Shown: positions 8,563 to 32,581, numbered from the stretch's first letter. The stretch: DNA of 64,000 nt from Gammaproteobacteria bacterium (GCA_022826245.1 JAJDVG010000005.1:10837-74836), one strand, 5' to 3'. Notes: generated by a model from the sequence alone, not told the origin. A program made the numbers and translations.

Positions 8563-10731
8563 TTACCAATTGAGGCGAAGCTGTGCGAAAGCGTTCATGC
8601 CGGGTCCGGGCAGGCGGGCGCCGAAGGGCACATCGGAATCGGCCACACGGTTGAAGCCCGCCAGGTGATTCGTGTAGTGCCTGTCGAGCACGTTTTCGAT
8701 TCCGACCCGAACCTGGACGCGATGGCCGGCTTCCCATTGACCGTAAAGGTTCAAAAGGCCGTAACCCGGTGTCGATGCGTTGCTCGAACGCGTTTCACCG
8801 TGGACGATCGTCGCTGAAATACGGTCCTGTTCCGCGACGAGTACGGCCTCCGTCGTCAGGGACCAGCGGCCGCGTTCCGTCGTCAGTGCGACGCGCGCAT
8901 TGAGCGGCGCGATGCGATACAGATCGTCGTCGATGTCAGCGCGCTTGCCGCGCACGTAGCTCAGGGTCGCATCGAGGCGCAGCCGCTCGGAGACGCTGTA
9001 ACGCGCGACGACATCGAAGCCGTAGAGTTCAGCCTCGACGTTCGCGAATTGCAGGGGCGTCGGATCGCCGTTCGCGTTGCCGCTCACCGCAATGACTACA
9101 GGGTCGACAACTGCGACGCCCTGAATGTAGTCATCCACGGACCGATAGAACATCCTGGGCGCCAGGAACCCCCTGTCGAACGTCCAGTCCAGGCTCAACT
9201 CGAACTGGTCGGAGACCTCCGGAGCCAGATCGACATTGCCGACGTAGTTGTTGAGGTCCCCGAGCCCTGAATTGATCTCGAGCGGAATCCAGAGATAGCG
9301 CTCCACGTACATCGGCGATCGGGTCTTGCGGGCGTAGCCGATGCCGAACATGAGCGCGTCGCCGATCGCCCTATCGAACTTGAGCACGGCATCGATGTTG
9401 TCGTCCCTTACCCTGCGTTCGGCCGCGTTGAATCGGTCCCTGAGAACCTTTACGGCGGACGGTGGCGTGCCGCGCGGGAACGCGCCGGGATGCATGTCGG
9501 CAAGCCGCGCCGGGAACGCGTCGATCGCGCCGGAAGAGGATTCGACCTGCATGTAGCGCACGCCGGCCTCCATGGACCAGAGGGCTCCGAGGTTGCCGAA
9601 CCATTCCGTGAACGCTCCAAGCTGATCCTGTTCGGAGTCGTTGAAGTTGTTGACGAAGAATGGGGCGAAGTCGGGATCGAGCACTTCGGCGGTATGCGTC
9701 TCGAGGTTGCCGTCGAGCCCGAAAGCGACCTGGCCGCTCCAGAGCGCTCGCGACCCGGACACGACGAAACCGGTCGCATCGGCAACGACATCGACGAAAC
9801 GCCGCTCCTCGTCCGCGAAAGGCGGCAGGGGAAGTTGCGATAAATCAGGCGCGTCGCGCAGCAGGAAGTTGTTCATGCCGTGCCGCACGTCCGTTCGGAA
9901 CACTCGGGCGGAGATGTCGGTGTCCCCGATGCGTATCCGGAACTCGGCGTTCACGCGGTCCGTGTCGAAGAAGTCGATGTCCAGCGGCAGTGCCGGGGTC
10001 CCGGAGGGATCGGTATCCGTATGCGACAGGTCGATCCCGAACTCGCCGTTCCGCCACCTGAAGCCGTAGCCTGCGCCGTAGGTCTGGCGGCCGTATTCGG
10101 TCGCGCTGACGGTTCCGGAGCCGGATTCGATCGCGTCGCCCTCCTCGCTGCTGGCGATGACATGGAAGCGGTGTTCAGAGTTCGAGACACCGAGAAAGGC
10201 GGCGACGGCGCTGCCGTCGTTGCTCATCGCCGAGAGCGCGGCGTCGCCCGCAAGTTCGAAATCGCGCGCGGCGACGAACTCGCTGTGCCGGGATTCCGCC
10301 TGAATCAGCCCGCCGATGCCGGGCCCGGCGCTGACCGGAGCAATGCCGCGGGTCATGGTGACGCGGTCGGTCAATGCGGCCGGCATGTAGTGCAGCGGCG
10401 CATCCATCCAGTTGGGTCCGCCTGGGGTGACGCGCATGCCGTCGACCGTGACGGTCATTCTCGGGCCGAACAGGCCGCGGTATTGAGCCTGGCCGCTCAA
10501 CGCGCCGTTGCGGTTGACGCTCGCCCCGGGCATCCGCGTCAGGATCTCCATGGCATCGGGCACCGGCGCGGCACTCGTGCCCGGGGTGATGTCGATGGTC
10601 TCGACCCGATCGGCAGAGCCGATAACGACGATCTCGGGGACGAGTGAGCGCGTCGGCGGCGCATTGTCCTGAGCATGTGCGGCCAGCGCGCCCGCCACGA
10701 GTCCGCACATCGATACAAAACGCATGTACAT
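8563..10731 (-). CDS. TonB-dependent outer-membrane receptor (possibly copper/metal type)
   Basis: ATG preceded by AAGGAG, signal peptide ending AHAQD, plug-domain motifs (PGASVNRNGALSGQAQYRGL), long beta-barrel region, and C-terminal aromatic residue (...AQLRLNW). Confidence 0.85.
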   Translation of the reverse strand: MYMRFVSMCGLVAGALAAHAQDNAPPTRSLVPEIVVIGSADRVETIDITPGTSAAPVPDAMEILTRMPGASVNRNGALSGQAQYRGLFGPRMTVTVDGMRVTPGGPNWMDAPLHYMPAALTDRVTMTRGIAPVSAGPGIGGLIQAESRHSEFVAARDFELAGDAALSAMSNDGSAVAAFLGVSNSEHRFHVIASSEEGDAIESGSGTVSATEYGRQTYGAGYGFRWRNGEFGIDLSHTDTDPSGTPALPLDIDFFDTDRVNAEFRIRIGDTDISARVFRTDVRHGMNNFLLRDAPDLSQLPLPPFADEERRFVDVVADATGFVVSGSRALWSGQVAFGLDGNLETHTAEVLDPDFAPFFVNNFNDSEQDQLGAFTEWFGNLGALWSMEAGVRYMQVESSSGAIDAFPARLADMHPGAFPRGTPPSAVKVLRDRFNAAERRVRDDNIDAVLKFDRAIGDALMFGIGYARKTRSPMYVERYLWIPLEINSGLGDLNNYVGNVDLAPEVSDQFELSLDWTFDRGFLAPRMFYRSVDDYIQGVAVVDPVVIAVSGNANGDPTPLQFANVEAELYGFDVVARYSVSERLRLDATLSYVRGKRADIDDDLYRIAPLNARVALTTERGRWSLTTEAVLVAEQDRISATIVHGETRSSNASTPGYGLLNLYGQWEAGHRVQVRVGIENVLDRHYTNHLAGFNRVADSDVPFGARLPGPGMNAFAQLRLNW

Positions 10732-10810
10732 TGCAGAAGCTCCTTGATCGAGAGCAATGCAGGGATTGCAGCCGGCCGAAGTCGAGCTTCGAATGCGGCT
10801 GTGGAAACGG

Positions 10811-11215
10811 TCAGATCAAGGATGGGTGGGGAGGAGCCCTGGAGTTGAACCCGATGGCGATCCAGGCGAGCGAAACGGGCGTGTAGAGCGTGAAGTCCGG
10901 GCCTGTGTCCGGAAACGGAACCTGCAATCCGGAATCGCCGTCAATGGCGGCGATGGAAAGCAGGACGCCGAAGGAACAGTGTTCCCATGCCAGTTCGTGA
11001 TTGCCGTCGGGGTCGTGGTGATCGTGATGGTCGTCGTGACCGGATTCCGGCGACAAGGGACCTTGCGGGAAGCCGGAGCTGCAGACCTGTATCGGCCAGC
11101 CTTCGCCCAGGGAAGCCGGCATGTAGCCTGCCGGAATGAGCAGCCTGCACACCAGCGCCGCATACGCGAAAAGCAGCAGCGGTCGCCGTAGCTCTTTGAG
11201 CGATCGAAGGCCCAT
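10811..11215 (-). CDS. small His-rich envelope protein, DUF2946-like (tentative)
   Basis: 134 aa with an N-terminal hydrophobic segment, HDDHHDHHD tract and WEHCSFG motif followed by a hydrophobic stretch. It sits immediately upstream of a TonB-dependent receptor, as DUF2946 genes do. Family assignment is from memory of the motif, not from a search. Confidence 0.4.
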   Translation of the reverse strand: MGLRSLKELRRPLLLFAYAALVCRLLIPAGYMPASLGEGWPIQVCSSGFPQGPLSPESGHDDHHDHHDPDGNHELAWEHCSFGVLLSIAAIDGDSGLQVPFPDTGPDFTLYTPVSLAWIAIGFNSRAPPHPSLI

Positions 11216-11248
11216 GGGCGGATTATTTTAGGTCTTTGGGCCGCATTT

Positions 11249-11267
11249 GCAAATCATTCTCATTACC
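11249..11267. promoter_or_regulatory. Fur-family-like box (GCAAATCATTCTCATTACC) upstream of the 10811..11215 gene
   Basis: 13 of 19 positions match the classical Fur box GATAATGATAATCATTATC. It lies 34 nt upstream of the start codon at 11215 and downstream of the preceding receptor gene. Confidence 0.3.
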
Positions 11268-11281
11268 GTTTGGCACGTCCG

Positions 11282-11307
11282 CGTGCCCATGCAGTCGCAT
11301 GGGCACG
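11282..11307 (-). terminator. perfect 11-bp stem / 4-nt loop hairpin after the receptor stop codon
   Basis: CGTGCCCATGC-agtc-GCATGGGCACG lies 12 nt downstream of the stop at 11319-11321. There is no U-tract, so it may be an attenuating or processing hairpin rather than a canonical intrinsic terminator. Confidence 0.35.
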
Positions 11308-11318
11308 CCGTCCCCCGC

Positions 11319-13862
11319 TCAGAAGTGCGAGCGGAACCCCAGCGCAACGTTGCGGCCCGGCAGAGGCACCGTGTCCTTCACGAACGAGGTGTGCCTGCGC
11401 GCATCCTCGTCGGCGAGGTTGTGCCCGTGCACGAAGACCTCGAACGTCGTTCCACCCGGAGTCTCGACGGTCCAGGTGAAGTCCGCATTGACCATCGTGT
11501 AACCCTCCGTACGCGTTTCGATCGCTGCGATGTCGTCCTGGTCGTCATAGACCGTTACCTCGAAACCCGCGAGGAAACGGTCGTTGTGGAACTGGATCCG
11601 CGAGCCGTAACGCAATGGCGGCATTCTCGGCAGGTGTTCCCCGTTGCTGAGCTCGCCGTTGACGTAGTCGGCAAAAAGACGCAGATCGACCTCTGCGCCG
11701 CCGCGTTGGAAGATGGGCGTGAAAAACTCGGCCTCGATCCCGGTGAAGTCCGCGTCCCGCTGCACAAAGTTGTAAATCGGCAATTCGCCGTCCAACTCGC
11801 CGGAGTCCTCAAGGTAGATGAAGTCCGTGTAGTCGGTCTGAAATGCGGTGAGGCTCCAGTTCATGTCGCCTTGCGTTCCGCGAATCCCGATATCCATATG
11901 CCGGGACGTTTCCACGCCGATGTCCGGATCGCCGATCTCGACCGATTGGGTCGCCAGGTGCGGTCCGTCCGCATAGAGTTCCTCGGCCACCGGCAAGCGG
12001 TCCGCGAGCGCCGCATTCAGCACGAAAGAGAAGCCGTCGCCGAAGTCGCGGATTCCCGCGACCGACAGGTTCGTCGCGGTGTCGCTGATTTCCGGCAGGC
12101 CTTGGGAAGGCTCCTGTTTCTGGTAATCGAGACGGCCTCCCAGCGAAACATTCCAGTTGTCGAAGTCCCGCTGCTCAATGATGAAGGCGCCGTAGCTCGA
12201 CGTGTCGACCGGCGGCACGAAAGCCTCGGCCCCGACCGCTGAGAACTGCCGCTCGTTGAGCTGCACGCCGTAAGCGCCGTCCCAGGCGCCCCAGGGCGCA
12301 TGCATGAACTCGATCCGCCCTTCCCAGGACTCGTTATCGAAGCGGGTACCGATTTGATCGCCTTCCAGTTCCAGGTGCTCGTAATCGGTAAAACCGAACC
12401 TGAGATTGATCGCCTCCACTGGACCTGACAGGTCGAACCAGCCGGCCTTGAGGTCCACCCGCATCTGCTTGAGCTTGATGCGCACGGCCTCTTCCTCGGC
12501 CCCGTGCTCGTCATGGTCGTGATCGTGGTCGTCCTCATCCTCGTCGTGGTCGTGGTCGTCCTCATCTTCGTCGTGATCGTGGTCGTCCTCGTCCTCGTCG
12601 TGGTCGTGGTCGTCCTCATCCTCGTCGTGGTCGTGGTCGTCCTCATCCTCGTCGTGGTCGTGGTCGTCCTCATCCTCGTCGTGGTCGTCCTCGTCGTGGT
12701 CGTCCTCGTCGTGATCGTCCTCGTCGTGATCGTCTTCGTCGTGATCGTCTTCGTCGTGATCGTCTTCGTCGTGGTCGTCCTCGTCGTGGTCGTCCTCGTC
12801 GTGGTCGTCCTCGTCGTGATCGTCTTCGTCGTGGTCGTCTTCGTCGTGGTCGTCTTCGTCGTGGTCGTCTTCGTCGTGGTCGTCCTCGTCGTGATCGTCC
12901 TCGTCGTGGTCGTCTTCGTCGTGGTCGTGGTCGTCCTCGTCGTCGTGATCGTGGTCGTGTTCGTCGCCTACCATCACTTCCGCGTGGTGATGATGATGGC
13001 CGGGAATGCCGTAGTTCGTATCGAAGCCACTCACCGAGACACCGATGAAACCGTTGCCCCCGAGCCAACTGCCGCCGATCGAGTACGCCTCGCCGTCGAG
13101 CGAGCTGTTCTCGAGGATCTGACGCACCGTCAGTTCACCGTCGTCCTCGTGGTCGTCTTCGTGTTCATGGTCGTCGTGGTCGTCCTCCTCTCCTATCCCA
13201 AGGTCCGCGGGACCCGGAATCTCGTAGTCTTCCGACCTGCGGCTCACCGCATCGAAGTGCCAGGCGAAATTGTCGTTGCCGCCGTCGAGCGCGATCAGGC
13301 CGCTGCGGGAGTCCGCGACGGAATCGCCCTTCAGCTCGAATATGCCCTCGAACCCGTCGTCCGGAGCAAACGCGGGGATACGATTGGTGATGACGTTGAC
13401 GACTCCGCCAACCGCAGCGGTACCGTAAAGCAGACTCGTCGGCCCCCGGAAAATCTCTATCTGTTCGGCCACGAGCGGATCGACGCTCACGGCATGGTCG
13501 ACGCTGATCGTCGAGACGTCCATGGTGTCCAGCCCATCTTCCATCGTCCGCACGCGTGGACCGGCCAGCCCGCGAATGATCGGCCGCGAAGTGCCCGCGG
13601 CGAAGGACGAAGCGCTTACGCCGAGCTGGTCGGCGAGCGTTTCGCCGAGTGTCGAACGGCGAACGCGCTCGAGCGCCTGCTCTCGAATGACCGTGATCGA
13701 CTGGGCCAGCTCGTCGGCGGATCGCTCGCGCAGCACGCCCGTGACATGCACCTCCTCCAACGGGTGGACGGTATCGGCCTGTTCGTCCTGCGCCGCAACG
13801 ACACAGGGAAAAACCAGTGAAACAGCCTTCACCAGCATTCGAAAGCACTTGGAAGATCCCAT
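11319..13862 (-). CDS. TonB-dependent receptor with giant His/Asp/Glu repeat loop (ZnuD-like metal receptor)
   Basis: ORF 11319..13931 trimmed to Met24 (signal peptide MGSSKCFRMLVKAVSLVFPCVVAAQDE). Plug motifs (RGPTSLLYGTAAVGGVVNVIT), barrel, and C-terminal ...GFRSHF. Two metal-ligand-rich insertions: EEDDHDDHEHEDDHEDD, and GIPGHHHHH followed by ~165 residues of H/D/E. Confidence 0.85.
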   Translation of the reverse strand: MGSSKCFRMLVKAVSLVFPCVVAAQDEQADTVHPLEEVHVTGVLRERSADELAQSITVIREQALERVRRSTLGETLADQLGVSASSFAAGTSRPIIRGLAGPRVRTMEDGLDTMDVSTISVDHAVSVDPLVAEQIEIFRGPTSLLYGTAAVGGVVNVITNRIPAFAPDDGFEGIFELKGDSVADSRSGLIALDGGNDNFAWHFDAVSRRSEDYEIPGPADLGIGEEDDHDDHEHEDDHEDDGELTVRQILENSSLDGEAYSIGGSWLGGNGFIGVSVSGFDTNYGIPGHHHHHAEVMVGDEHDHDHDDEDDHDHDEDDHDEDDHDEDDHDEDDHDEDDHDEDDHDEDDHDEDDHDEDDHDEDDHDEDDHDEDDHDEDDHDEDDHDEDDHDEDDHDEDEDDHDHDEDEDDHDHDEDEDDHDHDEDEDDHDHDEDEDDHDHDEDEDDHDHDHDEHGAEEEAVRIKLKQMRVDLKAGWFDLSGPVEAINLRFGFTDYEHLELEGDQIGTRFDNESWEGRIEFMHAPWGAWDGAYGVQLNERQFSAVGAEAFVPPVDTSSYGAFIIEQRDFDNWNVSLGGRLDYQKQEPSQGLPEISDTATNLSVAGIRDFGDGFSFVLNAALADRLPVAEELYADGPHLATQSVEIGDPDIGVETSRHMDIGIRGTQGDMNWSLTAFQTDYTDFIYLEDSGELDGELPIYNFVQRDADFTGIEAEFFTPIFQRGGAEVDLRLFADYVNGELSNGEHLPRMPPLRYGSRIQFHNDRFLAGFEVTVYDDQDDIAAIETRTEGYTMVNADFTWTVETPGGTTFEVFVHGHNLADEDARRHTSFVKDTVPLPGRNVALGFRSHF
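12504..12998 (-). repeat. in-frame coding tandem repeats: 6 x 27 nt (12519-12680) plus 16 x 15 nt (12676-12915) encoding (DEDEDDHDH)6 and (EDDHD)16
   Basis: Units were counted directly in the sequence. The 15-nt units vary only at two positions, both synonymous third-codon positions (GAC/GAT and GAG/GAA). Confidence 0.9.
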
Positions 13863-13937
13863 GGACTGCTCCGGTAACTCATACGACGAAAACCCGGGGA
13901 CAGGACATCGCCTGGCTCCCGGGAGACACAACGAGTT

Positions 13938-14228
13938 TCAGGAAGCGGTCGGTGGGGCGCGTGCGGGATGGGATTTGGGGAAACCGTCCGGAGTTGCGCG
14001 GTCGTTGCCCGAATCGGGTACGCGGGCGGAAACCGTCAACGGAACAACGACCTTGACGGGGGCGACGTTGGCGCTGGCCAGACTGGCGCCCGCGATGCAG
14101 AACTCGCAGACGGTGTCCGGGGCGTGGCCCTCGTCAGCCAGATCGTGATTCAGAACGACCAACTGCGCGGCGCATAGAAGCACTGCGCACACCGTGGCGA
14201 CCAATGCGTCACGGTCGGGTCGAAACAT
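13938..14228 (-). CDS. small DUF2946-like protein with CxxC motif (leader gene of the receptor)
   Basis: ORF 13938..14282, with likely start at Met19 (GGGAG 10 nt upstream). Hydrophobic N-terminus ALVATVCAVLLCAAQLVVL, then HAPDTVCEFCIAGASL (CxxC followed by a hydrophobic stretch). It ends 6 nt before the receptor ORF region. Confidence 0.45.
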   Translation of the reverse strand: MFRPDRDALVATVCAVLLCAAQLVVLNHDLADEGHAPDTVCEFCIAGASLASANVAPVKVVVPLTVSARVPDSGNDRATPDGFPKSHPARAPPTAS

Positions 14229-14392
14229 CCTGAACCATCTCCCGTTCACACGCGGAGTATAGGCACAAGCCCGCAGCGTCACAATCCACGACCGGCCTGT
14301 TACGCCACTGTGAACCGGAATTGCTAACTGTCATAATCGGAGCGAACGTTCGATGCGGGCGGAACGACTCCGCTCCGATGTAAGGTGAACCC

Positions 14393-16756
14393 ATGCGTGC
14401 GTCCCGTCTCAGTTGCCTGATTTCCCTGTTGATCGCGGGCCACAGCAGTGCCCAGCAGGCGCCGGAAGTCGTCGAGGTCGTCGGTCAAACCCCGCTCGGC
14501 GCTGGTGTCGATGCGGACCGGGTCGCTGCCAACGTGCAGTCGGCAACGGCCGAGGAACTTCGCGAGCAGCGGGCGCTGGATCTTGCGGATTTCATGAAGC
14601 GGAACCTCGCGAGCGTATTCGTCAACGAAGCGCAGAACAATCCGCTGCAACCGGACGTCCAGTACCGTGGCTTCGTCGGCTCCCCGCTTCTCGGGCTGCC
14701 GCAGGGCATAGCCGTGTACCAGGACGGCGTGCGCATCAACGAGCCGTTCGGCGATACCGTCAACTGGGCGCTCATTCCCGATTCCGCCATCGAGACGGTC
14801 TACCTGATGCCGGGGTCCGACCCGCTGTTCGGCCTCAACGCACTCGGCGGTGCAATCGCCATCGAAACAAAGACCGGATTCTCGAGCCCCGGAACGCGGG
14901 CGCAAATACACGGAGGCTCTTTCGGGCGGCTCGGGCTGCAAGCGGAAACGGGCGGTTCGACCGACGATCGTTTCAGCTACTTTCTGACGGGCTCGTACCT
15001 CGAGGAAGACGGCTGGCGCAATTATTCGCCGACGGAAGCAACCCAGTTCTTCGGCAATCTCGGCTGGCAAACCGACGCCGCGAGTCTCGATCTGAACGTG
15101 ACGCTGGCCGACACGAACCTGATCGGCAACGGCGCGGCGCCGATCGAACTGCTCGAGGTCGACCGCGCAGCGATCTTCACGCGTCCCGATCAGACCGAAA
15201 ACGAGCTCGCGCTGGTCAATCTGATCGTCGAGCGCGAAGTCTCGAGCAGCCTGACCCTGACCGGCAACGTCTACGTGCGGCGCAGCGACATCGGCACCTA
15301 CAACGGCGATGACTCCGATTTCGAGGAGTGTGATTTCCATCACGGCTTTATCTGCGAGGAAGCCGAAGGCGACGACGATGACGACGACGAGGATGAGCAC
15401 GAGCACGAGCACGGGGACGGCGACGATGACGATGACGATCACGATCACGACGAAGACGACGACGAGCACGAGGAAGAAGTGGTCCTCGACGCCAACGGCA
15501 ATCCGATTCCCGAGAGCGATGCGGTCGAGGGCGCGACCGTAAACCGGACCAACACGCAGCAGGACGGCATGGGCTTCGGCCTGCAGGCCACCTGGACCGG
15601 CGAGTTCGGCGGTCGCGAGAATGTCTTCGTGCTCGGGCTCTCGCATGACGACAGCGACATCGATTTCGACGCGAGCACGGAACTGGGCCGACTCGACGCC
15701 ACGCGGCTTGCGGTTCCGAGCGGCGTTTTCGTTGGCGAATCGTTCACCCGGATCAACGCCGAGACATCGACGACGGGCGTCTACGTGTCGCACAACTTCC
15801 TGGTTTCGGAGACCGTCGCCGTGACGCTCTCGGGCCGCTACAACAACACAAGTGTCGTGTTGCGCGATCTGCTGGGCACGGCGCTCAACGGCGATCACAG
15901 CTTCGGCCGATTCAATCCGGCCGTGGGCGTAACGGCGAATCTGCGCGACGATATGACGTTCTACGCGAGCTACAGCGAATCGAATCGCGCGCCCTCCCCT
16001 GTCGAACTCACCTGCGCCGACGAGGACGATCCCTGCCGGCTGCCGAACGCGTTTCTGGCCGACCCGCCGCTCGAGCAGGTCGTTGCCAGCACGCTCGAGG
16101 CCGGTCTCAGGGGCGACTGGTCCGGCGGCGACTGGCATGCGGGCGTCTTCCGCACCACCAATGAGGACGACATCCTGTTCATCAGTGCCGGCGCGCTCAC
16201 GAATGAAGGCTTCTTCGACAACGTGGGCAGGACCCGGCGCGACGGCATCGAGGTCAACCTGAACGGTCGGGCCGGGAACAACATGACCTGGTTCCTGAAT
16301 TACACCTTGCTGGACGCCACCTTCCTCGAGACGCTCGCATTCCCGAGTCCGAACAATCCCGCGGCAATCGAGGGCGAAGTGATGGTTTCCCCGGGCGACC
16401 GCCTGCCGCTGATTCCCGGACAACTCCTCAAGGGCGGGTTCCGGGCCGCGATCGGCGATCGCCTGACGATCGGCGGCGGCATCGTCGCGGGCGGCGACTT
16501 CCACATGCGCGGCGATGAGGGCAACGATGTCGGGCGCATCGGCGAGTATGCGGTCCTCAACCTGCGCGGCGACTACCGTATCAGCGACAGTGTCCGCCTG
16601 TTTCTGAATGTCGACAACGTGCTCGACGAGGAATACGAGACCTTCGGCCTCTTCGGCGAAGCCGACGAGGTGCTCGGCGACGATTTCGAAGACAGCCGCT
16701 TCTTCTCGCCGGCCGCGCCGCGGGCCGCCTGGGTGGGCGTGGAAGTCGACTTCTAG
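14393..16756 (+). CDS. TonB-dependent receptor with acidic/His-rich insertion
   Basis: ATG preceded by AAGGTG. Signal peptide ...IAGHSSAQQ, plug motifs (NEAQNNPLQPDVQYRGF), and C-terminal ...VGVEVDF. Insertion 15356-15478 encodes EEAEGDDDDDDEDEHEHEHGDGDDDDDDHDHDEDDDEHEEE, preceded by CDFHHGFIC. Confidence 0.85.
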   Translation: MRASRLSCLISLLIAGHSSAQQAPEVVEVVGQTPLGAGVDADRVAANVQSATAEELREQRALDLADFMKRNLASVFVNEAQNNPLQPDVQYRGFVGSPLLGLPQGIAVYQDGVRINEPFGDTVNWALIPDSAIETVYLMPGSDPLFGLNALGGAIAIETKTGFSSPGTRAQIHGGSFGRLGLQAETGGSTDDRFSYFLTGSYLEEDGWRNYSPTEATQFFGNLGWQTDAASLDLNVTLADTNLIGNGAAPIELLEVDRAAIFTRPDQTENELALVNLIVEREVSSSLTLTGNVYVRRSDIGTYNGDDSDFEECDFHHGFICEEAEGDDDDDDEDEHEHEHGDGDDDDDDHDHDEDDDEHEEEVVLDANGNPIPESDAVEGATVNRTNTQQDGMGFGLQATWTGEFGGRENVFVLGLSHDDSDIDFDASTELGRLDATRLAVPSGVFVGESFTRINAETSTTGVYVSHNFLVSETVAVTLSGRYNNTSVVLRDLLGTALNGDHSFGRFNPAVGVTANLRDDMTFYASYSESNRAPSPVELTCADEDDPCRLPNAFLADPPLEQVVASTLEAGLRGDWSGGDWHAGVFRTTNEDDILFISAGALTNEGFFDNVGRTRRDGIEVNLNGRAGNNMTWFLNYTLLDATFLETLAFPSPNNPAAIEGEVMVSPGDRLPLIPGQLLKGGFRAAIGDRLTIGGGIVAGGDFHMRGDEGNDVGRIGEYAVLNLRGDYRISDSVRLFLNVDNVLDEEYETFGLFGEADEVLGDDFEDSRFFSPAAPRAAWVGVEVDF

Positions 16757-16804
16757 GCGCCTCCACCGCAGGCTCCTGATGCTCGAGCGGCGCAGTCCCG
16801 GTCG

Positions 16805-16819
16805 GCTTAACGGTTAAGC
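16805..16819. promoter_or_regulatory. 15-bp perfect palindrome GCTTAAC-G-GTTAAGC, followed by two further CTTAAC copies (to 16841)
   Basis: Seen directly, 49 nt after the receptor stop and about 185 nt upstream of the next gene. The 1-nt centre makes a hairpin unlikely, so a dimeric protein-binding site is the more natural reading. Confidence 0.3.
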
Positions 16820-16894
16820 AACGGTTCTTAACGCGCTTAACCTTGGTTTGCGGAGCGCACACCGATAGGCTCGCTAAAGACGGTCGCGCACCTC

Positions 16895-16923
16895 TTCACC
16901 CACATGTGTCCGGCCAGTATATT
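16895..16923 (+). promoter_or_regulatory. candidate sigma70 promoter TTCACC-N17-TATATT
   Basis: Hexamers with 17-nt spacing lie 82 nt upstream of the ATG at 17005. The palindrome CACATGTG sits in the spacer. Confidence 0.3.
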
Positions 16924-17004
16924 GGGCCGCGCCAGGAATGAAGCCGGGCAGCGCGACAAACGATCGCAAACCGTGCGTCTCGCACGAACTGAGGGAGCCT
17001 CGAA

Positions 17005-17325
17005 ATGAAAGTGATCGGAACGCCAATACCCGTGCTGCTCGCCGGACTGCTTGCGCTGGCGGGACCGGCGCTCGCGCACAGCCCGATCTGCAACTGCTAC
17101 GACAACGGTGACGGGACGGTAACCTGCGAGGGCGGTTTTTCCGACGGCGCATCCGCCGAAGGCGTTGCGATGCGCATCGTCGATGACAGCGACCGGGTGC
17201 TCACGGTCGGCGAGATGGATGCTGACAGCACCTACACCTTCGACCGCCCGGATGACGAGTTCCACGTCATTTTCGATGCGGGCATGAGCCACATCGTGAC
17301 CATCTTCAGCGGCGATATCGAGTAA
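17005..17325 (+). CDS. small secreted Cys/His protein (hypothetical, 106 aa)
   Basis: GAGGGAG Shine-Dalgarno 7 nt upstream. Signal peptide ...LALAGPALA, then HSPICNCYDNGDGTVTCEGGF, then a beta-rich region. No family recognised. Confidence 0.55.
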   Translation: MKVIGTPIPVLLAGLLALAGPALAHSPICNCYDNGDGTVTCEGGFSDGASAEGVAMRIVDDSDRVLTVGEMDADSTYTFDRPDDEFHVIFDAGMSHIVTIFSGDIE

Positions 17326-17329
17326 GCGA

Positions 17330-18178
17330 ATGCGTTGGCGCACGAAGATAATCAGGCACGGGACTACAGCCCTCGCGACCGCCGGTACCGCGTTGCTGAT
17401 CGCGCCTGCCATGGCGCACTTCCAGATGCTGTACACGCCGGAAATGGCCCTGTCCTCGGGACAGGCGACGCAATTGCTCATGCTGTTCACCCATCCCGCC
17501 CACGGCGGGCCCAACATGGCCATGGGCACGCCCGAGGCGTTCTACCTGATCAGCCAGCGCGGCGACGCCGCGGAGCCGGTCACGACCGATCTGCAGGAAT
17601 ACCTGGAGCCGATCGCCTGGCACTCGGAAAACGGTCCGGTGGACGCGTTCGAGGCCAATCTGCCGCGCAATCTGACCCGGTCGCTCGGCGACTACGTCTT
17701 CGTGCTCGAACCGAGCCCGTACTACGAACCGCAGGAAGACAAGTACATCCAGCAGTTCACGAAGACGATCATGAACATCGCAGGCGTCCCCGGAAACTGG
17801 GCCGATCCCGTCGGGCTGCCTGCGGAAATCCTGCCGCTCGACAAGCCTTACGCGAACTGGACGGGCGGCGTGTTTCGCGGCATCGTTATTGCCGACGGCG
17901 AACCGGTCCCGTATGCGGAACTGGAGATCGAATACATCAACCACGCACCGGACCTCGCCGAACGCCGTTTCGCGACGGACGCCGAGGTCGATTACCCTCA
18001 GGACTCGTTCGGAACATTGTCCATACGCGCGAACGCGCAGGGCGAGTTCACGATCGGCCTGCCGCGGGCCGGATGGTGGGGCATCTGCGCGCTTGAAGTA
18101 GGCGCCGACACCGAGCACGAGGGCAAACCGCTGTCGCAGGACGCGGTGCTGTGGATTCAGGTCAAGGACATGCAATGA
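17330..18178 (+). CDS. DUF4198-like periplasmic protein (nickel/cobalt-uptake-associated family)
   Basis: Starts 4 nt after the previous stop. Signal peptide ...LLIAPAMA, then HFQMLYTP (mature N-terminal His, typical of this family as recalled). C-terminal beta-sandwich pattern GGVFRGIVIADGEPVPYAELEIEY...GEFTIGLPRAGWW. Confidence 0.6.
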   Translation: MRWRTKIIRHGTTALATAGTALLIAPAMAHFQMLYTPEMALSSGQATQLLMLFTHPAHGGPNMAMGTPEAFYLISQRGDAAEPVTTDLQEYLEPIAWHSENGPVDAFEANLPRNLTRSLGDYVFVLEPSPYYEPQEDKYIQQFTKTIMNIAGVPGNWADPVGLPAEILPLDKPYANWTGGVFRGIVIADGEPVPYAELEIEYINHAPDLAERRFATDAEVDYPQDSFGTLSIRANAQGEFTIGLPRAGWWGICALEVGADTEHEGKPLSQDAVLWIQVKDMQ

Positions 18179-18816
18179 GCGGGAACCGCGAAATCATCGA
18201 GCCTGCCGGCGCGCGCGGCGAAACGCTTGCGATCGCCGGAGTCGTCGCGGCGGTCCTCGCCCTCGGCGGCTATGCCGTGAGCCAGCGCCAGGTCGAAGCG
18301 ACGGAATCGAGGCTGTTCGACTGGCAGATCAGCGCGTTCCACGACATGAGCGATGCCGATCAGGCCATCTATAACGCGCTGTCCACGGCCTCGGTCGAGC
18401 TGTGGTGGATCCACGGCGATCTGCTGTACTTCGCGGGCGAAGAACGCGCCCAGGATCCGTGGCCCTACATCGAGGAGCTCGACGAGGACTACGCGATGCC
18501 GCCGTTCGTACGCGACGTGGCCTGGCGGCAGCATGGCGAGGTGAACTGGCAGCGCGTCGCCTCGTTCTCGTTCGAGGGGTCGACGGTCTACCACGGCAGC
18601 GGCGGCACGCTTCCCGGGCAGAGCGCCTGGCTACTCATGCTGTCGCACGTGCACAAGGGCGCGAGCTTCACGGACGGCGCGACGATCTGGATTCACCCGG
18701 ATCCCGATGCCCCGGCGCCGCAAACGATCAAGCGCGATTCGCTGATCGTCAACGGCTGGAAAGAGGTCGTGCCGTATACCGGCGCCATGGAAGTGGAACG
18801 CCTGCAGGGCGCCTGA
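18175..18816 (+). CDS. membrane-anchored hypothetical protein (single N-terminal TM helix, periplasmic domain)
   Basis: ORF 18151..18816 trimmed to the ATG in an ATGA overlap with the upstream stop. TM segment LAIAGVVAAVLALGGYAV. No recognised motifs. Confidence 0.55.
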   Translation: MSGNREIIEPAGARGETLAIAGVVAAVLALGGYAVSQRQVEATESRLFDWQISAFHDMSDADQAIYNALSTASVELWWIHGDLLYFAGEERAQDPWPYIEELDEDYAMPPFVRDVAWRQHGEVNWQRVASFSFEGSTVYHGSGGTLPGQSAWLLMLSHVHKGASFTDGATIWIHPDPDAPAPQTIKRDSLIVNGWKEVVPYTGAMEVERLQGA

Positions 18817-18819
18817 AGC

Positions 18820-19806
18820 ATGCGGAGCGTGACAATGAGCCAGGGGACGGCGATATCGAATCACCGTGTCAGCCAATCCCCGCCGCGCAGACTCCGTGCG
18901 TACCTGCGGTCGCTCCTGCTTGCCTGCGCGTTGAGTGCGGCGTACGGCAGCGCGGCCGCCCAACCGCTGCGCATCGGCATCACGCTTCACCCCTACTACA
19001 GTTTCGCCGCCAACATCGCCGGCGAGCGCGCCGAGATCGTGCCGCTCATCGATTCAGGCAGCAATCCGCACAACTACACGCCGCGGCCCGACGACATGCG
19101 GCGCGTACTGGAACTCGACGCGCTGATCGTCAATGGCATCGGTCACGACGAGTGGGCCTTCGAAATCGTTGCGGCAGCCGGCCGCGACGACGACCTGCCG
19201 CTGATCTACGCCAACGACGGCGTGGCGCTGATCCCGATCGCGGCCGACGAAGGCGACGCCCGAGTCGTCAACCCGCATACCTTCGTATCGACCACGGCCG
19301 CGATCCAGCAGATCTACACGATCGCCCAGGAACTCGGCGCGCTCGATCCCGGCAACGCAGACTTCTACCGCGACAACGCGCGTGCGTACGCGGCGAAGAT
19401 TCGCAGGCTCAAGGCCGGATTCATGGCGGAACTGCTCGAACTTGATGTTTCCGACTTTCGCTGCGCGACCATGCACGGCGCCTATGGCTATCTGATGCAG
19501 GAATTCGGCCTGCAGGTCACGGCGGTCATCGAACCGCGCCACGGCGTGGAACCGACCGCCCGGCAACTGGCCGACACGATCGAGAAAATCCAGTCCGCCG
19601 ACGTCAATGTGCTCTTCGCCGAGAAGTACTTCACGAGCCGCCTGTCGGAGACGATCCGCGACGCCACGGGCGTGAGCATGTACTCCTTCTCGCATATGTC
19701 CGACGGCGAGTTCGTGCCCGAACTGTACGAGCGCGAGATGCTCGCCAACCTCGAAACGCTGGTGGCCGCGGTACGCACTGCCGTCGACGCCGACAAGGGC
19801 CAGTGA
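18820..19806 (+). CDS. metal ABC transporter substrate-binding protein (ZnuA/TroA cluster A-I type)
   Basis: Signal peptide ...AAYGSAAAQ. Conserved metal-ligand contexts LHPYY, NPHNYTP and VNPHTF. An alternative ATG at 18835 has a GGAG upstream. Confidence 0.8.
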   Translation: MRSVTMSQGTAISNHRVSQSPPRRLRAYLRSLLLACALSAAYGSAAAQPLRIGITLHPYYSFAANIAGERAEIVPLIDSGSNPHNYTPRPDDMRRVLELDALIVNGIGHDEWAFEIVAAAGRDDDLPLIYANDGVALIPIAADEGDARVVNPHTFVSTTAAIQQIYTIAQELGALDPGNADFYRDNARAYAAKIRRLKAGFMAELLELDVSDFRCATMHGAYGYLMQEFGLQVTAVIEPRHGVEPTARQLADTIEKIQSADVNVLFAEKYFTSRLSETIRDATGVSMYSFSHMSDGEFVPELYEREMLANLETLVAAVRTAVDADKGQ

Positions 19807-19868
19807 ACACTGTGCGAGACAGCTCTGCCGAATCCATGGTCTTGCCCGGCGTACACAGCCCCTGAACC

Positions 19869-20597
19869 ATGCGCGGACCGGGCATCCGCTTCGACGCGGT
19901 CGGGCTCAGCCTCGGCGGCAACGAAATCCTGAACGGCATCGACTTCGAAGTCGCGCCCGGCGCCGTCCACTGCCTGATCGGTCCGAACGGCGGCGGCAAG
20001 ACTTCGCTCGTGCGCTGCCTGCTCGGGCAGATGCCGCACACGGGCACGATCTCCGTCGACTGGCAGGATAACGGCGTTATCGGCTACGTGCCGCAGTTCC
20101 TCGACTTTGACAAGTCGTTGCCCGTGTCCGTGAACGATTTCATGGCGATGGTCTGCCAGAAACGACGGCCCGCTTTCACGGGATTGAGCAAGCACAACCG
20201 CGCGCTGACCGACGCGGCTCTCGAGCGCGTCGGACTCGACGGCAAGCGCGGGGCCAGACTCGGCAGCCTGTCCGGCGGTGAGCGCCAGCGTGTGCTGTTC
20301 GCTCAGGCGTTGATCCCGGATCCTGCGCTGCTCGTTCTCGACGAGCCCATGAGCAGCATGGACGAGGTCGGCGCCGAGTGTTTCGAAGCCATCATCCGCG
20401 AACTTGCCGCCGGCGGCGTCACGATCGTCTGGGTCGCGCACGATCTGCGGCAAGTCGAGGAGATGGCGGATGCCGCCACATGCGTCAACCGTACGGTGCT
20501 CTTCACCGGAGCGCCTGCCGACGTCCTCGTCGGGCATGAGGCCGAGGCTCTGTTCGCGCGCGCAGGTGAGGCCGAGCCCGGGGATGCAGCGCCATGA
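19869..20597 (+). CDS. metal ABC transporter ATP-binding protein (ZnuC-like)
   Basis: Walker A GPNGGGKTS, signature LSGGERQR, Walker B LLVLDEP. Confidence 0.9.
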   Translation: MRGPGIRFDAVGLSLGGNEILNGIDFEVAPGAVHCLIGPNGGGKTSLVRCLLGQMPHTGTISVDWQDNGVIGYVPQFLDFDKSLPVSVNDFMAMVCQKRRPAFTGLSKHNRALTDAALERVGLDGKRGARLGSLSGGERQRVLFAQALIPDPALLVLDEPMSSMDEVGAECFEAIIRELAAGGVTIVWVAHDLRQVEEMADAATCVNRTVLFTGAPADVLVGHEAEALFARAGEAEPGDAAP

Positions 20598-21499
20598 CCG
20601 CGATCTACGACTGGATTCGCGACACGCTCATGAACCTGGCCTTCGAGGGCACGCTGCCGCTCGCCTTCCAGTACGGCTTCGTCATCAATGCCCTGCTCTG
20701 CGCGCTGCTGATCGGGCCGGTACTCGGCGGTGTCGGGACGATGGTCGTCACCAAGCGCATGGCGTTCTTTTCCCAGGCCGTGGGCAATGCCGCCATGACG
20801 GGTGTGGCCATCGGCGTACTGCTCGGCGAGTCCTACACGGAACCCTACATCTCGACCTTCTCGTTCTGCATCCTGTTCGGCCTGGTACTGAATTACACGA
20901 AGGGCCGAACGGCGCTTTCCGCCGACACGCTGATCGGCGTCTTCCTCTCGATCTCGCTTGCCGTGGGCGCCTCGTTGCTGTTGTTCGTCTCGGCGCGCGT
21001 GAACACGCACATCCTCGAGGCGGTGCTCTTCGGCTCAGTGCTCACGGTAAGCGACACCGACATCAACGTGCTGCTCGTCGTGACGATCGCAACCGTCCTC
21101 GTCGGCGTTCCTCTCTTCAACCGCCTGCTGCTTGCGAGCCTTAACCCGAGCCTCGCCGACGTGCGCGGCGTGCCGGTACGGGCACTCGAATACGTCTTCG
21201 TGCTCATGATCACGATTCTGACGGTCGCCTGCCTCAAGATCGTCGGCGCCGTGCTCGTCGAGGCGCTGTTGCTCATCCCGGCGGCGGCCGCGCGCAACGT
21301 CATCCGGTCGATGAAGGGCTTCGTTTTCCTGAGCATGGCGATCTCCACGGTCAGTTGCGTCGCGGGCGTGCTGCTGCCGATGCAGCTCGACCTGCCCCTG
21401 CCGTCAGGCGGCGCCATCATCATGATCGCGGCAGGCTTCTTCGTCCTGACCTTCCTGATACGCGTTACCATTTCCCGATTCAGGGAAGCGCAGCCATGA
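20594..21499 (+). CDS. metal ABC transporter permease (ZnuB-like)
   Basis: ATGA overlap with the ATPase stop. Multi-TM protein of ABC-3 family appearance (FQYGFVINALL..., LLIPAAAAR). Confidence 0.88.
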   Translation: MTAIYDWIRDTLMNLAFEGTLPLAFQYGFVINALLCALLIGPVLGGVGTMVVTKRMAFFSQAVGNAAMTGVAIGVLLGESYTEPYISTFSFCILFGLVLNYTKGRTALSADTLIGVFLSISLAVGASLLLFVSARVNTHILEAVLFGSVLTVSDTDINVLLVVTIATVLVGVPLFNRLLLASLNPSLADVRGVPVRALEYVFVLMITILTVACLKIVGAVLVEALLLIPAAAARNVIRSMKGFVFLSMAISTVSCVAGVLLPMQLDLPLPSGGAIIMIAAGFFVLTFLIRVTISRFREAQP

Positions 21500-22482
21500 A
21501 GACGAATCGCGGCTCGGGGATCCCAGCGCTAACGGTCGCGGGCCTGCTGCTCCCGGCCTTGCCAGGCCATGCCCAGGACGACGAGATCCTCGTGCTGACG
21601 GCCTTGCCCTCGACGTACTCGGTCACCCACGCGCTCGCCGAGGGCACGAGCATCGTCGTCGAGAATCTGCCCGAGCGCGGCCGGCGCATGAGCGCGCTCC
21701 CGAACCTCCTGCGGCAATCCGCTGACCGCTACGCCGACACGCTGGCCAGGGCCGATGCCGTCGTGACCATCGGCAAGCTCTGGCGGGACGATCCGCTCTT
21801 CATCGCCGCGCGCAGCTACAACGTACGAGTCGTCGATATCGATGCGACCAAGCCCTGGTCGACCACGCTCGAAGGGATATCCGTGGCGCTCGAGCCGCGT
21901 CGCAACGCACCCTGGGCGGAGGCAGACGATTCCCCGCGTGAACCGTCCGTCCACTACTGGCTCAGCCCCGCCAACGGCGCGCGCATGGCCGAGATCATCG
22001 CGAGCGACCTGGCGCGCCTGGCGCCCGACGACCGCACGATCGTCGAAACGAACCTCGCTGAACTCAGGCGCGAACTGCTCGGTCTCAAGGTCGAATACGA
22101 ACTCAGGTTCGCGGAACTCGCCGACGTGACCGTGTTCGCCCTGGCGTCCGAATTCGTCTACCTGACCAGCGACATGGGCCTCTACGTGGACGGCTGGTTC
22201 GTCAAGCAGGACATCGACTGGACGGATGCGGACCTGGCGGCTTTCGGCGATTACCTGCGCGACAACGGCATCGGCGTCGCCATGCACAAGTGGGAACCGG
22301 ACGAGCGTATCCGAGCCGTCATCGAAGCGGCCGGCGCGCGGCTCGTCGTCCTCGACACGCTCGATGCGGGCATCGTCGAGGACGGTCGCCTGATGCCCGA
22401 GAGCTACCTCGAACTCATGCGCGACAACCTCGAGTCCCTCCATGCGGCGCTCGCGGCGCACAACGCGGGACAGCCGGAATGA
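21496..22482 (+). CDS. second ZnuA/TroA-like periplasmic binding protein with degenerate metal site
   Basis: ORF 21355..22482 trimmed to the ATG in an ATGA overlap with the permease stop. Signal peptide ...LPALPGHAQDD. Retains the HYWLSP context but lacks the other canonical His contexts. Confidence 0.6.
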   Translation: MKTNRGSGIPALTVAGLLLPALPGHAQDDEILVLTALPSTYSVTHALAEGTSIVVENLPERGRRMSALPNLLRQSADRYADTLARADAVVTIGKLWRDDPLFIAARSYNVRVVDIDATKPWSTTLEGISVALEPRRNAPWAEADDSPREPSVHYWLSPANGARMAEIIASDLARLAPDDRTIVETNLAELRRELLGLKVEYELRFAELADVTVFALASEFVYLTSDMGLYVDGWFVKQDIDWTDADLAAFGDYLRDNGIGVAMHKWEPDERIRAVIEAAGARLVVLDTLDAGIVEDGRLMPESYLELMRDNLESLHAALAAHNAGQPE

Positions 22483-22627
22483 ACCACCGTGCCGCAGGAT
22501 GGCTTTCTTAATATCGTTTATGGAATAGTTTCATAAACTTCTGTTTTATATATTTTTTCTGAAAAGATGATCGATACCGAGACTTGGCAAACTTGCGGAA
22601 CCTGAAGCGGCCGAAAACCACATCGAC

Positions 22628-23185
22628 ATGAAATTCGTACCCCTCCCGAGAAGGCCGTCGATAACAGCGAAGCAGTTCCGCAGCGTCGGGCTTGCCGCCG
22701 CGCTATTGTGTTTCCTCGCGGGAGCGGCGCAGGCACAGGTTCTATCGGCCGTGAGCAGTGAAGGCGATGTGCTGGTCATGCCGGGCACGCCGATGCCTGC
22801 CGCCGCCATCGTCGACGGCGTGCGGCTCAGCGTGGCGGACGAGGGCAACTTTCGGGTCTACAGGGCGACGCTGAATGGCGACACGCATACCGCCCGCATT
22901 GCACTTGACGGTCCGACGAGGCACATGGCCTTCGACCGGCAACGCGAGCGGTTCCGCGAGCTGACACCGAGCGTGATCGTCGAGTTGCGCGACTATGCCC
23001 GGCTCGACGAGATCGTCGAATCCGCGGGCGCTCTCGGCGGCAAGGCCTATCCCGAACTCGGATTCGCCATCGTGCAGTTGCCCGAAACGACCAATCCGGC
23101 CGAAGCCGCACGCGCCTTGCTCGGCCATCCGGCAGTCGATGCCGCCCGCGTGCAACTGGCTGGTCCGCTTCGCGTACCGCTATAG
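22628..23185 (+). CDS. secreted hypothetical protein with C-terminal subtilisin-propeptide (inhibitor I9)-like domain
   Basis: Signal peptide ...LAGAAQAQV. The C-terminal ~70 aa (VIVELRDYARLDEIVESAGALGGKAYPELGFAIVQLPETTNPAEAARALLGHPAVDAARVQ) follow the beta-alpha-beta-beta-alpha-beta spacing of S8 pro-domains. The start codon has no clear Shine-Dalgarno. Confidence 0.45.
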   Translation: MKFVPLPRRPSITAKQFRSVGLAAALLCFLAGAAQAQVLSAVSSEGDVLVMPGTPMPAAAIVDGVRLSVADEGNFRVYRATLNGDTHTARIALDGPTRHMAFDRQRERFRELTPSVIVELRDYARLDEIVESAGALGGKAYPELGFAIVQLPETTNPAEAARALLGHPAVDAARVQLAGPLRVPL

Positions 23186-32182: not shown

Positions 32183-32581
32183 CTACTCTGCGGGTCTTGG
32201 TTTCAGGTCTGCCGGCGCAAAGAACTCGATATGAGAGGAATCTACGAGCGCCTCGACTTCATGCACCGAATACGACGGTATGACGATGACGTCACCGACT
32301 TCCAGCACGTGGTCCGTGCCTTCAACCGCGATTCGATAGCGTCCGGACCGCACCATGAGAATCTGCTCGTTGACGTGACTGTGGGCCGGAAAAATCGTTC
32401 CGGCCGCGTAACGTACGATGTTCATGCGCCCAAGTTCGCCCGGAAACTGCTTGATCGTGACGCCGTCCCGACTGCCTTCGCTCCATTCGAGATCGTCCGA
32501 GCTGACGATCGTCGGATCGGGCGGTGCGGCGAATGCGACCGTTGCAACCAGAACGCCAAGCAGAGTCATCGTTGTTTTCAT
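32183..32581 (-). CDS. secreted cupin-domain protein
   Basis: Signal peptide MKTTMTLLGVLVATVAFAAPP. Cupin motifs GTIFPAHSH and GDVIVIPSYSVHEV. ATGA overlap with the upstream gene. Confidence 0.75.
   Translation of the reverse strand: MKTTMTLLGVLVATVAFAAPPDPTIVSSDDLEWSEGSRDGVTIKQFPGELGRMNIVRYAAGTIFPAHSHVNEQILMVRSGRYRIAVEGTDHVLEVGDVIVIPSYSVHEVEALVDSSHIEFFAPADLKPRPAE

Follow-up and report, generated by a model that had tools for sequence, protein, structure and literature searches.

The DNA analysed was a 64,000-nt stretch from a Gammaproteobacteria bacterium (GCA_022826245.1 JAJDVG010000005.1:10837-74836), hereafter called the window, which is chromosomal with a G+C content of about 65%. Positions 8563 to 22482 carry three genes for TonB-dependent receptors (TBDRs), two small genes of the DUF2946 type and a seven-gene cassette for an importer of the ATP-binding cassette (ABC) type. 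In a preliminary description these had been taken as a single two-armed metal-acquisition system. The three receptors (8563-10731 and 11319-13931 on the minus strand, 14393-16756 on the plus strand), the DUF2946 gene, the CxxC open reading frame (ORF) and the plus-strand genes were all found at the positions given there, and profile searches of the ORFs bore out the gene families and the metal theme. Four promoter-like sites were present, one each for the two small genes (cruR1 and cruR2), the plus-strand receptor gene (TBDR_A) and the cassette, which points to four transcription units. The nearest relatives were the metagenome-assembled unclassified Gammaproteobacteria L006 and L007, with 92% identity in the DUF6162 protein of the cassette.

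The cassette (17005-22482) and the elements upstream of it were as follows.

16805-16842, plus strand: candidate operator GCTTAACGGTTAAGCAACGGTTCTTAACGCGCTTAACC, with the single TTAACNGTTAA site in the 64 kb
16895-16923, plus strand: promoter-like site TTCACC-17-TATATT, its -10 conserved in L006 and L007
17005-17325, plus strand: fpvJ-like gene, secreted protein of 106 aa with mature N-terminus HSPICNC
17330-18178, plus strand: DUF4198 periplasmic protein (Pfam PF10670, 156 bits, above threshold) with mature N-terminus HFQ
18175-18816, plus strand: fpvK-like gene, membrane-anchored protein (Pfam DUF6162)
18820-19806, plus strand: fpvC-like gene, cluster A-I binding protein with a six-His site (E 5e-87 to PDB 6R3Z/6RU4)
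19869-20597, plus strand: fpvD-like ABC ATPase (Pfam ABC_tran; E 3e-81 to the FpvD ORF)
20594-21499, plus strand: fpvE-like ABC-3 permease (Pfam ABC-3; E 7e-102 to FpvE)
21496-22482, plus strand: fpvF-like second binding protein (weak ZnuA Pfam match; E 2e-40 to the FpvF ORF)

The five tight junctions described previously were all read from the sequence: a 4-nt gap at 17325/17330, a 3-nt gap at 18816/18820, and ATGA overlaps at 18175-18178, 20594-20597 and 21496-21499. The proposal that the plus arm is one operon held for 17005-22482 and failed for TBDR_A. The 248-nt gap between TBDR_A and the cassette (16757-17004) contains a promoter-like site and an operator of its own, so the plus arm is probably two units rather than one.

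The corresponding Pseudomonas aeruginosa operon was taken from metagenome contigs encoding a 100% identical FpvC, and its products were compared with the window proteins by phmmer. The fpvC-like protein matched FpvC with an E value of 1.8e-92. It was also ~60% identical to the 'probable adhesion protein' of PDB 6R3Z/6RU4, which we take to be P. aeruginosa PA2407, FpvC. In the mutant entry 6R6K, six His residues are changed to Gly relative to the wild type, and all six are present in the fpvC-like protein. The fpvJ-like protein matched FpvJ (E 2e-31) and shared its mature N-terminus, H-x-P-I-C-x-C, while the fpvK-like protein matched FpvK at E 3e-10. FpvK of P. aeruginosa itself matched Pfam DUF6162 at E 6e-46, which identifies DUF6162 as the family of FpvK; FpvG belongs to the PepSY_TM proteins. 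Judged by these comparisons, the cassette is homologous to P. aeruginosa fpvJ-fpvK-fpvCDEF, a described system, and its envelope genes are not the uncharacterised set they had been thought to be. The earlier label of a ZnuABC-like importer was also not retained: the binding protein scored 56 bits against the NCBI ZnuA cut-off of 268, and is not a ZnuA equivalog, and no Zur-like box was found in any of the six intergenic regions searched.

The fpvJ-like protein also matched the NikL family model, over the N-terminal half only and with 44 bits against a cut-off of 100. Its AlphaFold2 (AF2) model (predicted local distance difference test, pLDDT, 89.9) was a generic Ig-like sandwich, and a fold search returned generic Ig-like matches only. 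The AF2 model of the fpvK-like protein (pLDDT 88.5) had no fold match in the PDB. By sequence, the DUF4198 protein had no match in the PDB and was too divergent for the three His ligands of Zcp, a Neisseria DUF4198 protein, to be mapped onto it. The fpvF-like protein had only one conserved His and no conserved metal-ligand set, and was the least conserved member of the cassette.

A scan of the genome collection seeded with the DUF6162 alignment gave 55 loci, whose gene order was determined by tblastn. The order FpvJ-like, DUF4198, FpvK-like, FpvC, FpvD, FpvE, FpvF was kept in about 50 of the 55, confirming that the 17005-22482 block is conserved as a neighbourhood, and pre-computed Pfam calls on independent contigs gave the same order. 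The hosts were uncultured Gammaproteobacteria (SAR86, Porticoccaceae, Cellvibrionales, Steroidobacteraceae), Rhodospirillaceae, Bauldia and Terriglobia/Acidobacteriota. Candidate cultured carriers are 'Gammaproteobacteria bacterium 50_400_T64' (L017) for the seven-gene form and Vibrio profundi, Shinella zoogloeoides, Cohaesibacter and Rhodovulum strictum for related forms. Candidate ligands were conserved family-wide, including seven His of the FpvC-like protein and the N-terminal His and Cys pair of FpvJ. Across the 55 loci, the six His of the FpvC-like metal site and His25, Cys31, Cys41 and His96 of the fpvJ-like protein were at least 98% conserved; in the DUF4198 protein the N-terminal His was 96% and His55 100% conserved. 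H158 and H160 of the fpvK-like protein were invariant throughout the family. At 7728-9220 of L002, which encodes a DUF6162 protein identical to that of L001, the operon is split by an rve-family transposase between the fpvJ-like and DUF4198 genes.

Some related forms of the module retain further genes. The Shinella locus contained a complete fpvG-to-fpvF set, and a scan of the plasmid collection gave one match, unannotated and from Shinella. In Vibrio profundi, genes for ExbBD-TonB, an FhuF-like protein, PepSY_TM_like_2, DUF2271 and DUF4198 lie directly upstream of fpvJKCDEF, and in the Hydrogenophaga locus a sequence resembling a Fur box is present upstream. Through these forms the module is linked to iron reduction. 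Only L061 had an FpvH homologue. Outside L061, FpvG gave weak matches only (E ~1e-7), to a PepSY_TM gene of the SAR86 locus L003/L004/L018, encoded on the opposite strand ~6 kb past the downstream end of the cassette. In the window, no homologues of FpvG or FpvH were found, and neither were PepSY_TM_like_2 or DUF2271.

The window cassette therefore resembles P. aeruginosa fpvGHJKCDEF (PA2403-PA2410) in its J-K-C-D-E-F order, the six His of FpvC, the second binding protein after the permease, the FpvJ mature start and the membership of FpvK in DUF6162. It differs in lacking FpvG (PepSY_TM) and FpvH, in carrying a DUF4198 gene between fpvJ and fpvK, in an invariant SHVHKG motif of the FpvK-like protein that is absent from P. 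aeruginosa FpvK, and in having TTAAC-N-GTTAA upstream, with no pyoverdine genes seen in the window. In the P. aeruginosa model, ferri-pyoverdine is reduced by FpvG/FpvH; FpvJ forms a bridge to both FpvC and FpvF, and the Fe(II) is received by FpvC and imported by FpvDE (PMC6954188, PMC13119372). Characterised DUF4198 proteins are Zcp of Neisseria, which binds Zn (PMC12663993), and IsDUF4198 of Ideonella, in which Ni is bound by the N-terminal His (PMC12537917). With these, and with NikK-NikL of the energy-coupling factor (ECF) nickel transporters, the cassette protein shares a periplasmic fold family and a NikL-like partner, and with IsDUF4198 it shares the conserved N-terminal His; unlike all of them, it is encoded within an Fpv-type ABC operon. 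A cluster A-I binding protein, ABC-3 permease and ATPase are common to the cassette and to ZnuABC/AztABCD, but its binding protein is not a ZnuA or AztC equivalog. Vibrio ZrgABCDE was considered as a model for the plus arm and ruled out, as it uses unrelated proteins (DUF2796, DUF2607, DUF3299) and a MacB-type permease.

Units of TTAAC-N-GTTAA, one to three in number and ~11 bp apart, were found upstream of the cassette in most proteobacterial loci. A match to at least 9 of the 10 operator positions occurred in 43% of 54 cassette upstream regions compared with 0.29% of 3093 control windows, an enrichment of ~150-fold. The motif also precedes a receptor gene in L011, and precedes or is shared with one in L033; in several loci, divergent DUF6152 genes share the operator region. 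The motif resembles neither a Fur nor a Zur box. The only literature match to its half-sites was the AdcR/ZitR motif TTAACNNGTTAA, in which the half-sites are equal to those of the cassette operator, the spacer of the latter being one base shorter. Naming a regulator from the operator was set aside on account of this spacer mismatch and of the alternative reading of the motif as an 11-bp direct repeat. No regulator gene was found among the conserved cassette neighbours, of which DUF6152 was the recurrent one, and none flanks the region in the window, in agreement with the preliminary description, which had noted no Zur-, Fur- or CueR-type regulator gene in it or adjoining it. Classical Fur and Zur boxes were searched for in the six intergenic regions, with nothing notable at the divergent or cassette promoter.

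Genes for DUF6152 proteins recurred close to the cassette, at most a few kb away, in ~17 loci. The proteins carry a W-x-NPH motif and, after the signal peptide, start with a mature His-His. Examples are L034 1050-1427, L026 7483-7932, L051 7355-8521 and, ~10 kb from the cassette, window 32578-33621 (minus strand). The acidobacterial (Terriglobia) loci L001, L009, L012, L013, L024 and L005 had no palindromic operator upstream of the cassette; these copies share another upstream sequence, GAAATTCATTAACTTTTCAGTAACC, with TAAC elements 11 bp apart.

The features of the other three units were the following.

8563-10731, minus strand: TBDR_C, OprC-like receptor of 722 aa (Pfam Plug and barrel)
10741-10822, minus strand: candidate anti-Shine-Dalgarno (anti-SD) helix of cruR2, in which the last codons UCCUUGAUC (10822-10814) pair with GAUCAAGGA (10749-10741), the SD of TBDR_C
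10811-11215, minus strand: cruR2, putative His-rich single-Cys DUF2946 leader with HDDHHDHHD, WEHC, then RAPP, five residues and the stop
11225-11253, minus strand: cruR2 promoter-like site TTTGCA-17-TAAAAT
11319-13862, minus strand: TBDR_B, ZnuD-like TBDR (the ORF extends to 13931; likely start 13862)
12489-13001, minus strand: His/Asp loop of TBDR_B, 171 aa, with 30.2 copies of a 15-bp unit at 12523-12966 (Tandem Repeats Finder, TRF)
13866-13947, minus strand: candidate anti-SD helix of cruR1, in which CGCUUCC (13947-13941), immediately ahead of the cruR1 stop, pairs with GGAGCAG, the SD of TBDR_B (13872-13866)
13938-14228, minus strand: cruR1, putative leader, read from the sequence as CEFC, 45 residues, RAPP, TAS, stop
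14256-14284, minus strand: cruR1 promoter-like site TTGTGA-17-TATACT, conserved in L006 and L007
14328-14339, plus strand: conserved CTGTCATAATCG, candidate extended -10 for TBDR_A (alignment of three relatives)
14393-16756, plus strand: TBDR_A, TBDR of 787 aa (Pfam), with an acidic/His insertion at 15356-15478

The cruR1 ORF spans 13938-14282 on the minus strand, with a likely start at 14228. Its Cys pair (C41-C44) and RAPP (R90-P93), three residues before the stop, are kept with their spacing in L006 and L007 and match the DUF2946/CruR hallmarks of PMC9426467, where DUF2946 genes act as copper-linked leaders, as the preliminary description had assumed. Against PF11162 (DUF2946), cruR1 scored 15.7 bits (E 0.027), below the gathering threshold of 23.7, and cruR2 scored 25.5 bits (E 2.4e-5), above the cut-off. 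Where the family has CxxC, cruR2 has WEHC. A full HMMER scan gave 406 related clusters for the cruR2 subfamily; among the 151 best short relatives, CxxC was found in none, R[AG]PP near the C-terminus in 141, and a single Cys ~46 residues before R[AG]PP, most of them being His-rich. The top match of this search, P0244, was an unrelated 1644-aa repeat protein and was set aside. The metal sites of DUF2946 proteins are 'mostly Cys and His' according to the literature. In L143, a cruR2-type module has copB and genes for a multicopper oxidase and a copper P-type ATPase as neighbours, which supports the copper link of cruR2. A Fur-like box (14/19) at 11249-11267 on the minus strand overlaps the cruR2 promoter-like site; it was not conserved upstream of cruR2 in L007, L142 and L143 and may be due to chance or specific to the rearranged copy.

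In both units the gene order was leader then TBDR, with gaps of 75-79 nt. The cruR1 anti-SD fold had an energy of -45.9 kcal/mol (z -2.0), and its helix arms were invariant in four relatives while the intervening sequence varied. The cruR2 helix arms were kept in four loci, including L143 with a leader only 42% identical. On this complementarity, the end of the leader may pair with the receptor SD in both units. Like Bordetella pertussis cruR(bp2923)-bfrG-bp2921 and Rhodobacter capsulatus cutFOG, the modules start with a small exported gene product and continue with the receptor. cruR1 shares with Bp2923 the CxxC, the 45 residues and RAPP three residues before the stop, and a possible stem masking the downstream ribosome-binding site is shared with cutF-cutO. 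Unlike cruR-bfrG and cutFOG, the window modules have no PepSY_TM gene downstream and shorter intergenic gaps; cruR2 has one Cys and a His-rich tract instead of CxxC, and cruR1 would control a ZnuD-like rather than an OprC-type receptor.

Both receptor insertions of the preliminary description, the His/Asp repeat in the middle receptor and the His/acid insertion in the plus-strand one, were present. TBDR_B scored 409 bits against NF038289 (ZnuD; cut-off 950) and matched the ZnuD structure 4RDR at E 2.5e-62. By these scores it is homologous to ZnuD only, below the curated cut-off. It has the barrel, plug and His/Asp-rich extracellular loops of Neisseria ZnuD, from which it differs in its 171-aa repeat-expanded loop, copper-type leader and lack of a Zur box. 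The corresponding loops of the L006 and L007 orthologues are ~40 aa, and the orthologue ORFs as listed are 786-789 aa, or 984 aa in L142; these differences indicate that the loop is hypervariable in length. Just past the TBDR_B stop, a perfect 10-bp inverted repeat without a T-run (11283-11306, minus strand; GTGCCCATGC-GACT-GCATGGGCAC) may form a transcript-end or stabilising hairpin.

TBDR_C scored 158.8 bits against TIGR01778 (TonB-copper), below the cut-off of 472, and matched the OprC structures 6FOK/6Z8Y at E 1e-34. The OprC copper ligands C143/M147/H323/M325 correspond to G/M/H/M in TBDR_C (GGPNWMDAP, RHGMNNF). The Met and His-x-Met ligands of P. aeruginosa OprC (6FOK) are thus shared and the Cys is not, being Gly in all five receptors checked (TBDR_C and four related). 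TBDR_A had distant PDB relatives only (5NEC, YncD, PqqU; ~1e-9). Its acidic/His insertion varies in length and composition among the L006 and L007 orthologues (roughly 27-41 aa).

All four units occur together in the window, L007 and L142, and mostly together in L006. TBDR_A adjoins the cassette only in L006, L007 and L142 besides the window, and the cruR2/OprC-like module is inverted between genomes, even close relatives. Any TBDR gene lay within 6 kb of the importer in 7 of the 55 loci, and none did in the other 48. The receptors adjoin the importer only in close relatives, and the view of one two-armed system was not upheld. The possible extension of the minus arm to an FtsX permease was ruled out by synteny: L142 has a Usp gene and a patatin gene in between, and the adjacency in the window is a chance result of rearrangement.

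Taken together, the sequence comparisons make it fairly probable that the region is a cluster of four metal-uptake units, specific to one clade and each under its own control, with an Fpv-type importer and CruR-type leaders. Its parts are variants of recently described systems, not one new machine. By analogy with Bordetella CruR-BfrG and Rhodobacter CutF-CutO, cruR1 and cruR2 are probably copper-responsive leaders of the DUF2946/CruR arrest-peptide type, and units 1 and 2 would each consist of such a small exported leader, ending in a RAPP arrest motif, and a TBDR gene. When copper is scarce, the ribosome would pause on RAPP and cover the last leader codons, the receptor SD would stay free, and the receptor would be made. 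Copper binding to the nascent leader would relieve the pause, whereupon the helix would re-form (or Rho would terminate) and receptor synthesis would stop. In this scheme cruR1 would sense through CxxC and control the ZnuD-like receptor with its hypervariable (DHDED)n capture loop, and cruR2 would sense through His-rich/His-Cys ligands and control the OprC-like receptor. Unit 3 would be TBDR_A under its own promoter.

Unit 4 would be the Fpv-type importer from periplasm to cytoplasm, its expression set by a regulator binding the tandem TTAAC-N-GTTAA sites. The secreted fpvJ-like and DUF4198 proteins (mature His first in both) and the membrane-anchored fpvK-like protein would pass a divalent metal to the six-His fpvC-like protein, which would feed the FpvD/FpvE-like transporter; the fpvF-like protein would handle a non-metal ligand or serve as a partner. 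Homologies, motifs, gene-order conservation and operator enrichment are what was observed here, and from them we infer the metals, the direction of regulation and the order of hand-off. By analogy, the metal of the cassette is most likely Fe(II), as the P. aeruginosa Fpv system releases and imports Fe(II) (PMC6954188, PMC13119372).

Several observations weigh against parts of this interpretation. For the importer, neither the window nor a distance of 10 kb in the metagenome-derived loci contained a gene for an FpvG/FpvH, PepSY or DUF2271 reductase, and no Fur box was found at the cassette promoter; both weaken the case for iron. The six-His site of FpvC is reportedly able to bind several divalent metals. 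Ni, Co or Zn would also be possible, as Zcp and IsDUF4198, both DUF4198 proteins, bind Zn and Ni, respectively, and NikL is similar to FpvJ in its N-terminal half. Between the operator and the predicted -35 downstream of it there are 45-90 nt, a position that would be unusual for a simple repressor. For the leaders, a copper-type leader ahead of a ZnuD-like, supposedly zinc, receptor is a mismatch, and the anti-SD helices showed no covariation, both arms being invariant, with modest fold z-scores (-2.0, -1.0).

Tentatively, the cassette may instead import metal freed from an organic metallophore that is brought in by TBDR_A and bound by the fpvF-like protein. FpvF binds pyoverdine in P. aeruginosa (PMC6954188), and the poor conservation of the fpvF-like protein, without a metal-ligand set, would fit such a role, as would the adjacency of TBDR_A in four related genomes and the operator found ahead of, or shared by, receptor genes of L011 and L033. 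However, the window showed no genes for metallophore biosynthesis, a reductase gene is absent from the vicinity, and the 48 loci without a receptor within 6 kb are difficult to reconcile with it. It is likewise possible, if doubtful, that the seven genes define an undescribed periplasmic metal-relay importer, widespread among uncultured marine and soil bacteria, for a metal other than iron, with its own regulon and a regulator whose half-sites are like those of AdcR/ZitR, a zinc repressor of Gram-positive bacteria. That regulon would take in the TTAAC-N-GTTAA operator, the neighbouring DUF6152 proteins with their His-His mature N-terminus, and some receptors.

An assignment of the cassette to nickel or cobalt, with the fpvJ-like and DUF4198 proteins acting as a NikL/NikK pair on an ABC instead of an ECF transporter, appears unlikely. 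The partial NikL match suggests it, as do the former annotation of DUF4198 as NikK/NikM, an operator that is neither Fur-like nor Zur-like, and the binding of Ni by IsDUF4198 (18 nM) via an N-terminal His that is 96% conserved in the cassette DUF4198 protein (PMC12537917). Yet the NikL match is below its cut-off (44 vs 100 bits), no NikR, urease or hydrogenase genes are nearby, the characterised homologous operon handles iron, and related cassettes accompany iron-reduction genes.

A single coordinated zinc island is quite improbable. In it, ZnuD-like receptors would feed a ZnuABC-like importer, with a Zcp-like DUF4198 helper and a distant Zur. The homology of TBDR_B to ZnuD, the His/Asp-rich loops of two receptors, the membership of the binding proteins in the ZnuA Pfam family and the Zur-regulated, Zn-binding Zcp of Neisseria (PMC12663993) would accord with it. 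Against these stand the absence of a Zur-like box from all intergenic regions examined, the copper-type CxxC/RAPP leader ahead of the ZnuD-like gene, a binding protein at 56 of the 268 bits of the ZnuA cut-off with an FpvC six-His rather than a ZnuA site, and receptors that are unlinked to the importer outside one clade. That the two small ORFs are ordinary periplasmic copper-binding proteins co-expressed with the receptors is very improbable: both have export signals and potential metal ligands, and the 75-79 nt gaps are shorter than the 162 nt of Bordetella, but RAPP lies at a fixed distance from the stop, the 45-residue spacing fits the arrest-peptide family, the leader-end/SD pairing is conserved, and the mature Bordetella protein was undetected (PMC9426467).

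The genes flanking the region encode the FtsX permease, a glutathione S-transferase (GST), an amidohydrolase, a prodomain-like protein and an S8 protease. Just past the fpvF-like stop, ~100 nt at 22500-22600 are strikingly A+T-rich for a genome of 65% G+C, and could be a recombination scar or a promoter serving the gene that follows. Farther on (22628-23185, plus strand) is the gene of a 185-aa secreted protein with a region resembling a fervidolysin prodomain, which also follows the cassette in L006 and L007. It adjoins the gene of an S8 subtilase of 956 aa that has Ig-like and P domains (23385-26255, minus strand). A run of ORFs at 33.7-48 kb resembles an NADH dehydrogenase (nuo) operon, judged by ORF sizes alone with no family-library run. 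A search for known RNAs gave two tRNA genes and no riboswitches or other known RNAs in the window, and intrinsic terminators were fewer than expected by chance.

What is new here is the reductase-less, DUF4198-containing form of the Fpv-type importer, together with the two CruR-type leader/receptor modules. With the modules, the CruR mechanism would also cover a His-rich single-Cys subfamily (at least 406 clusters) and a ZnuD-like receptor, and a concrete anti-SD read-out is suggested; the repeat-expanded loop of TBDR_B is a natural example of length variation in the metal-capture loop of a receptor. To our knowledge, no function of FpvJ or FpvK in the Pseudomonas pyoverdine pathway has been established. 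Here they travel with FpvCDEF in ~50 genomes without an adjacent reductase gene and carry invariant candidate ligands (N-terminal His and Cys pair; HxH), a co-occurrence that points to a general role in metal hand-off. Were the undescribed relay to prove true, a siderophore-independent hand-off role would be assigned to both. The most useful result is the seven-gene importer itself, conserved in ~50 mostly uncultured bacteria. With it, an operon that is common but unannotated in SAR86, Porticoccaceae, Steroidobacteraceae, Rhodospirillaceae and Acidobacteriota genomes can be named and searched for; the uptake of trace metals matters ecologically in these groups.

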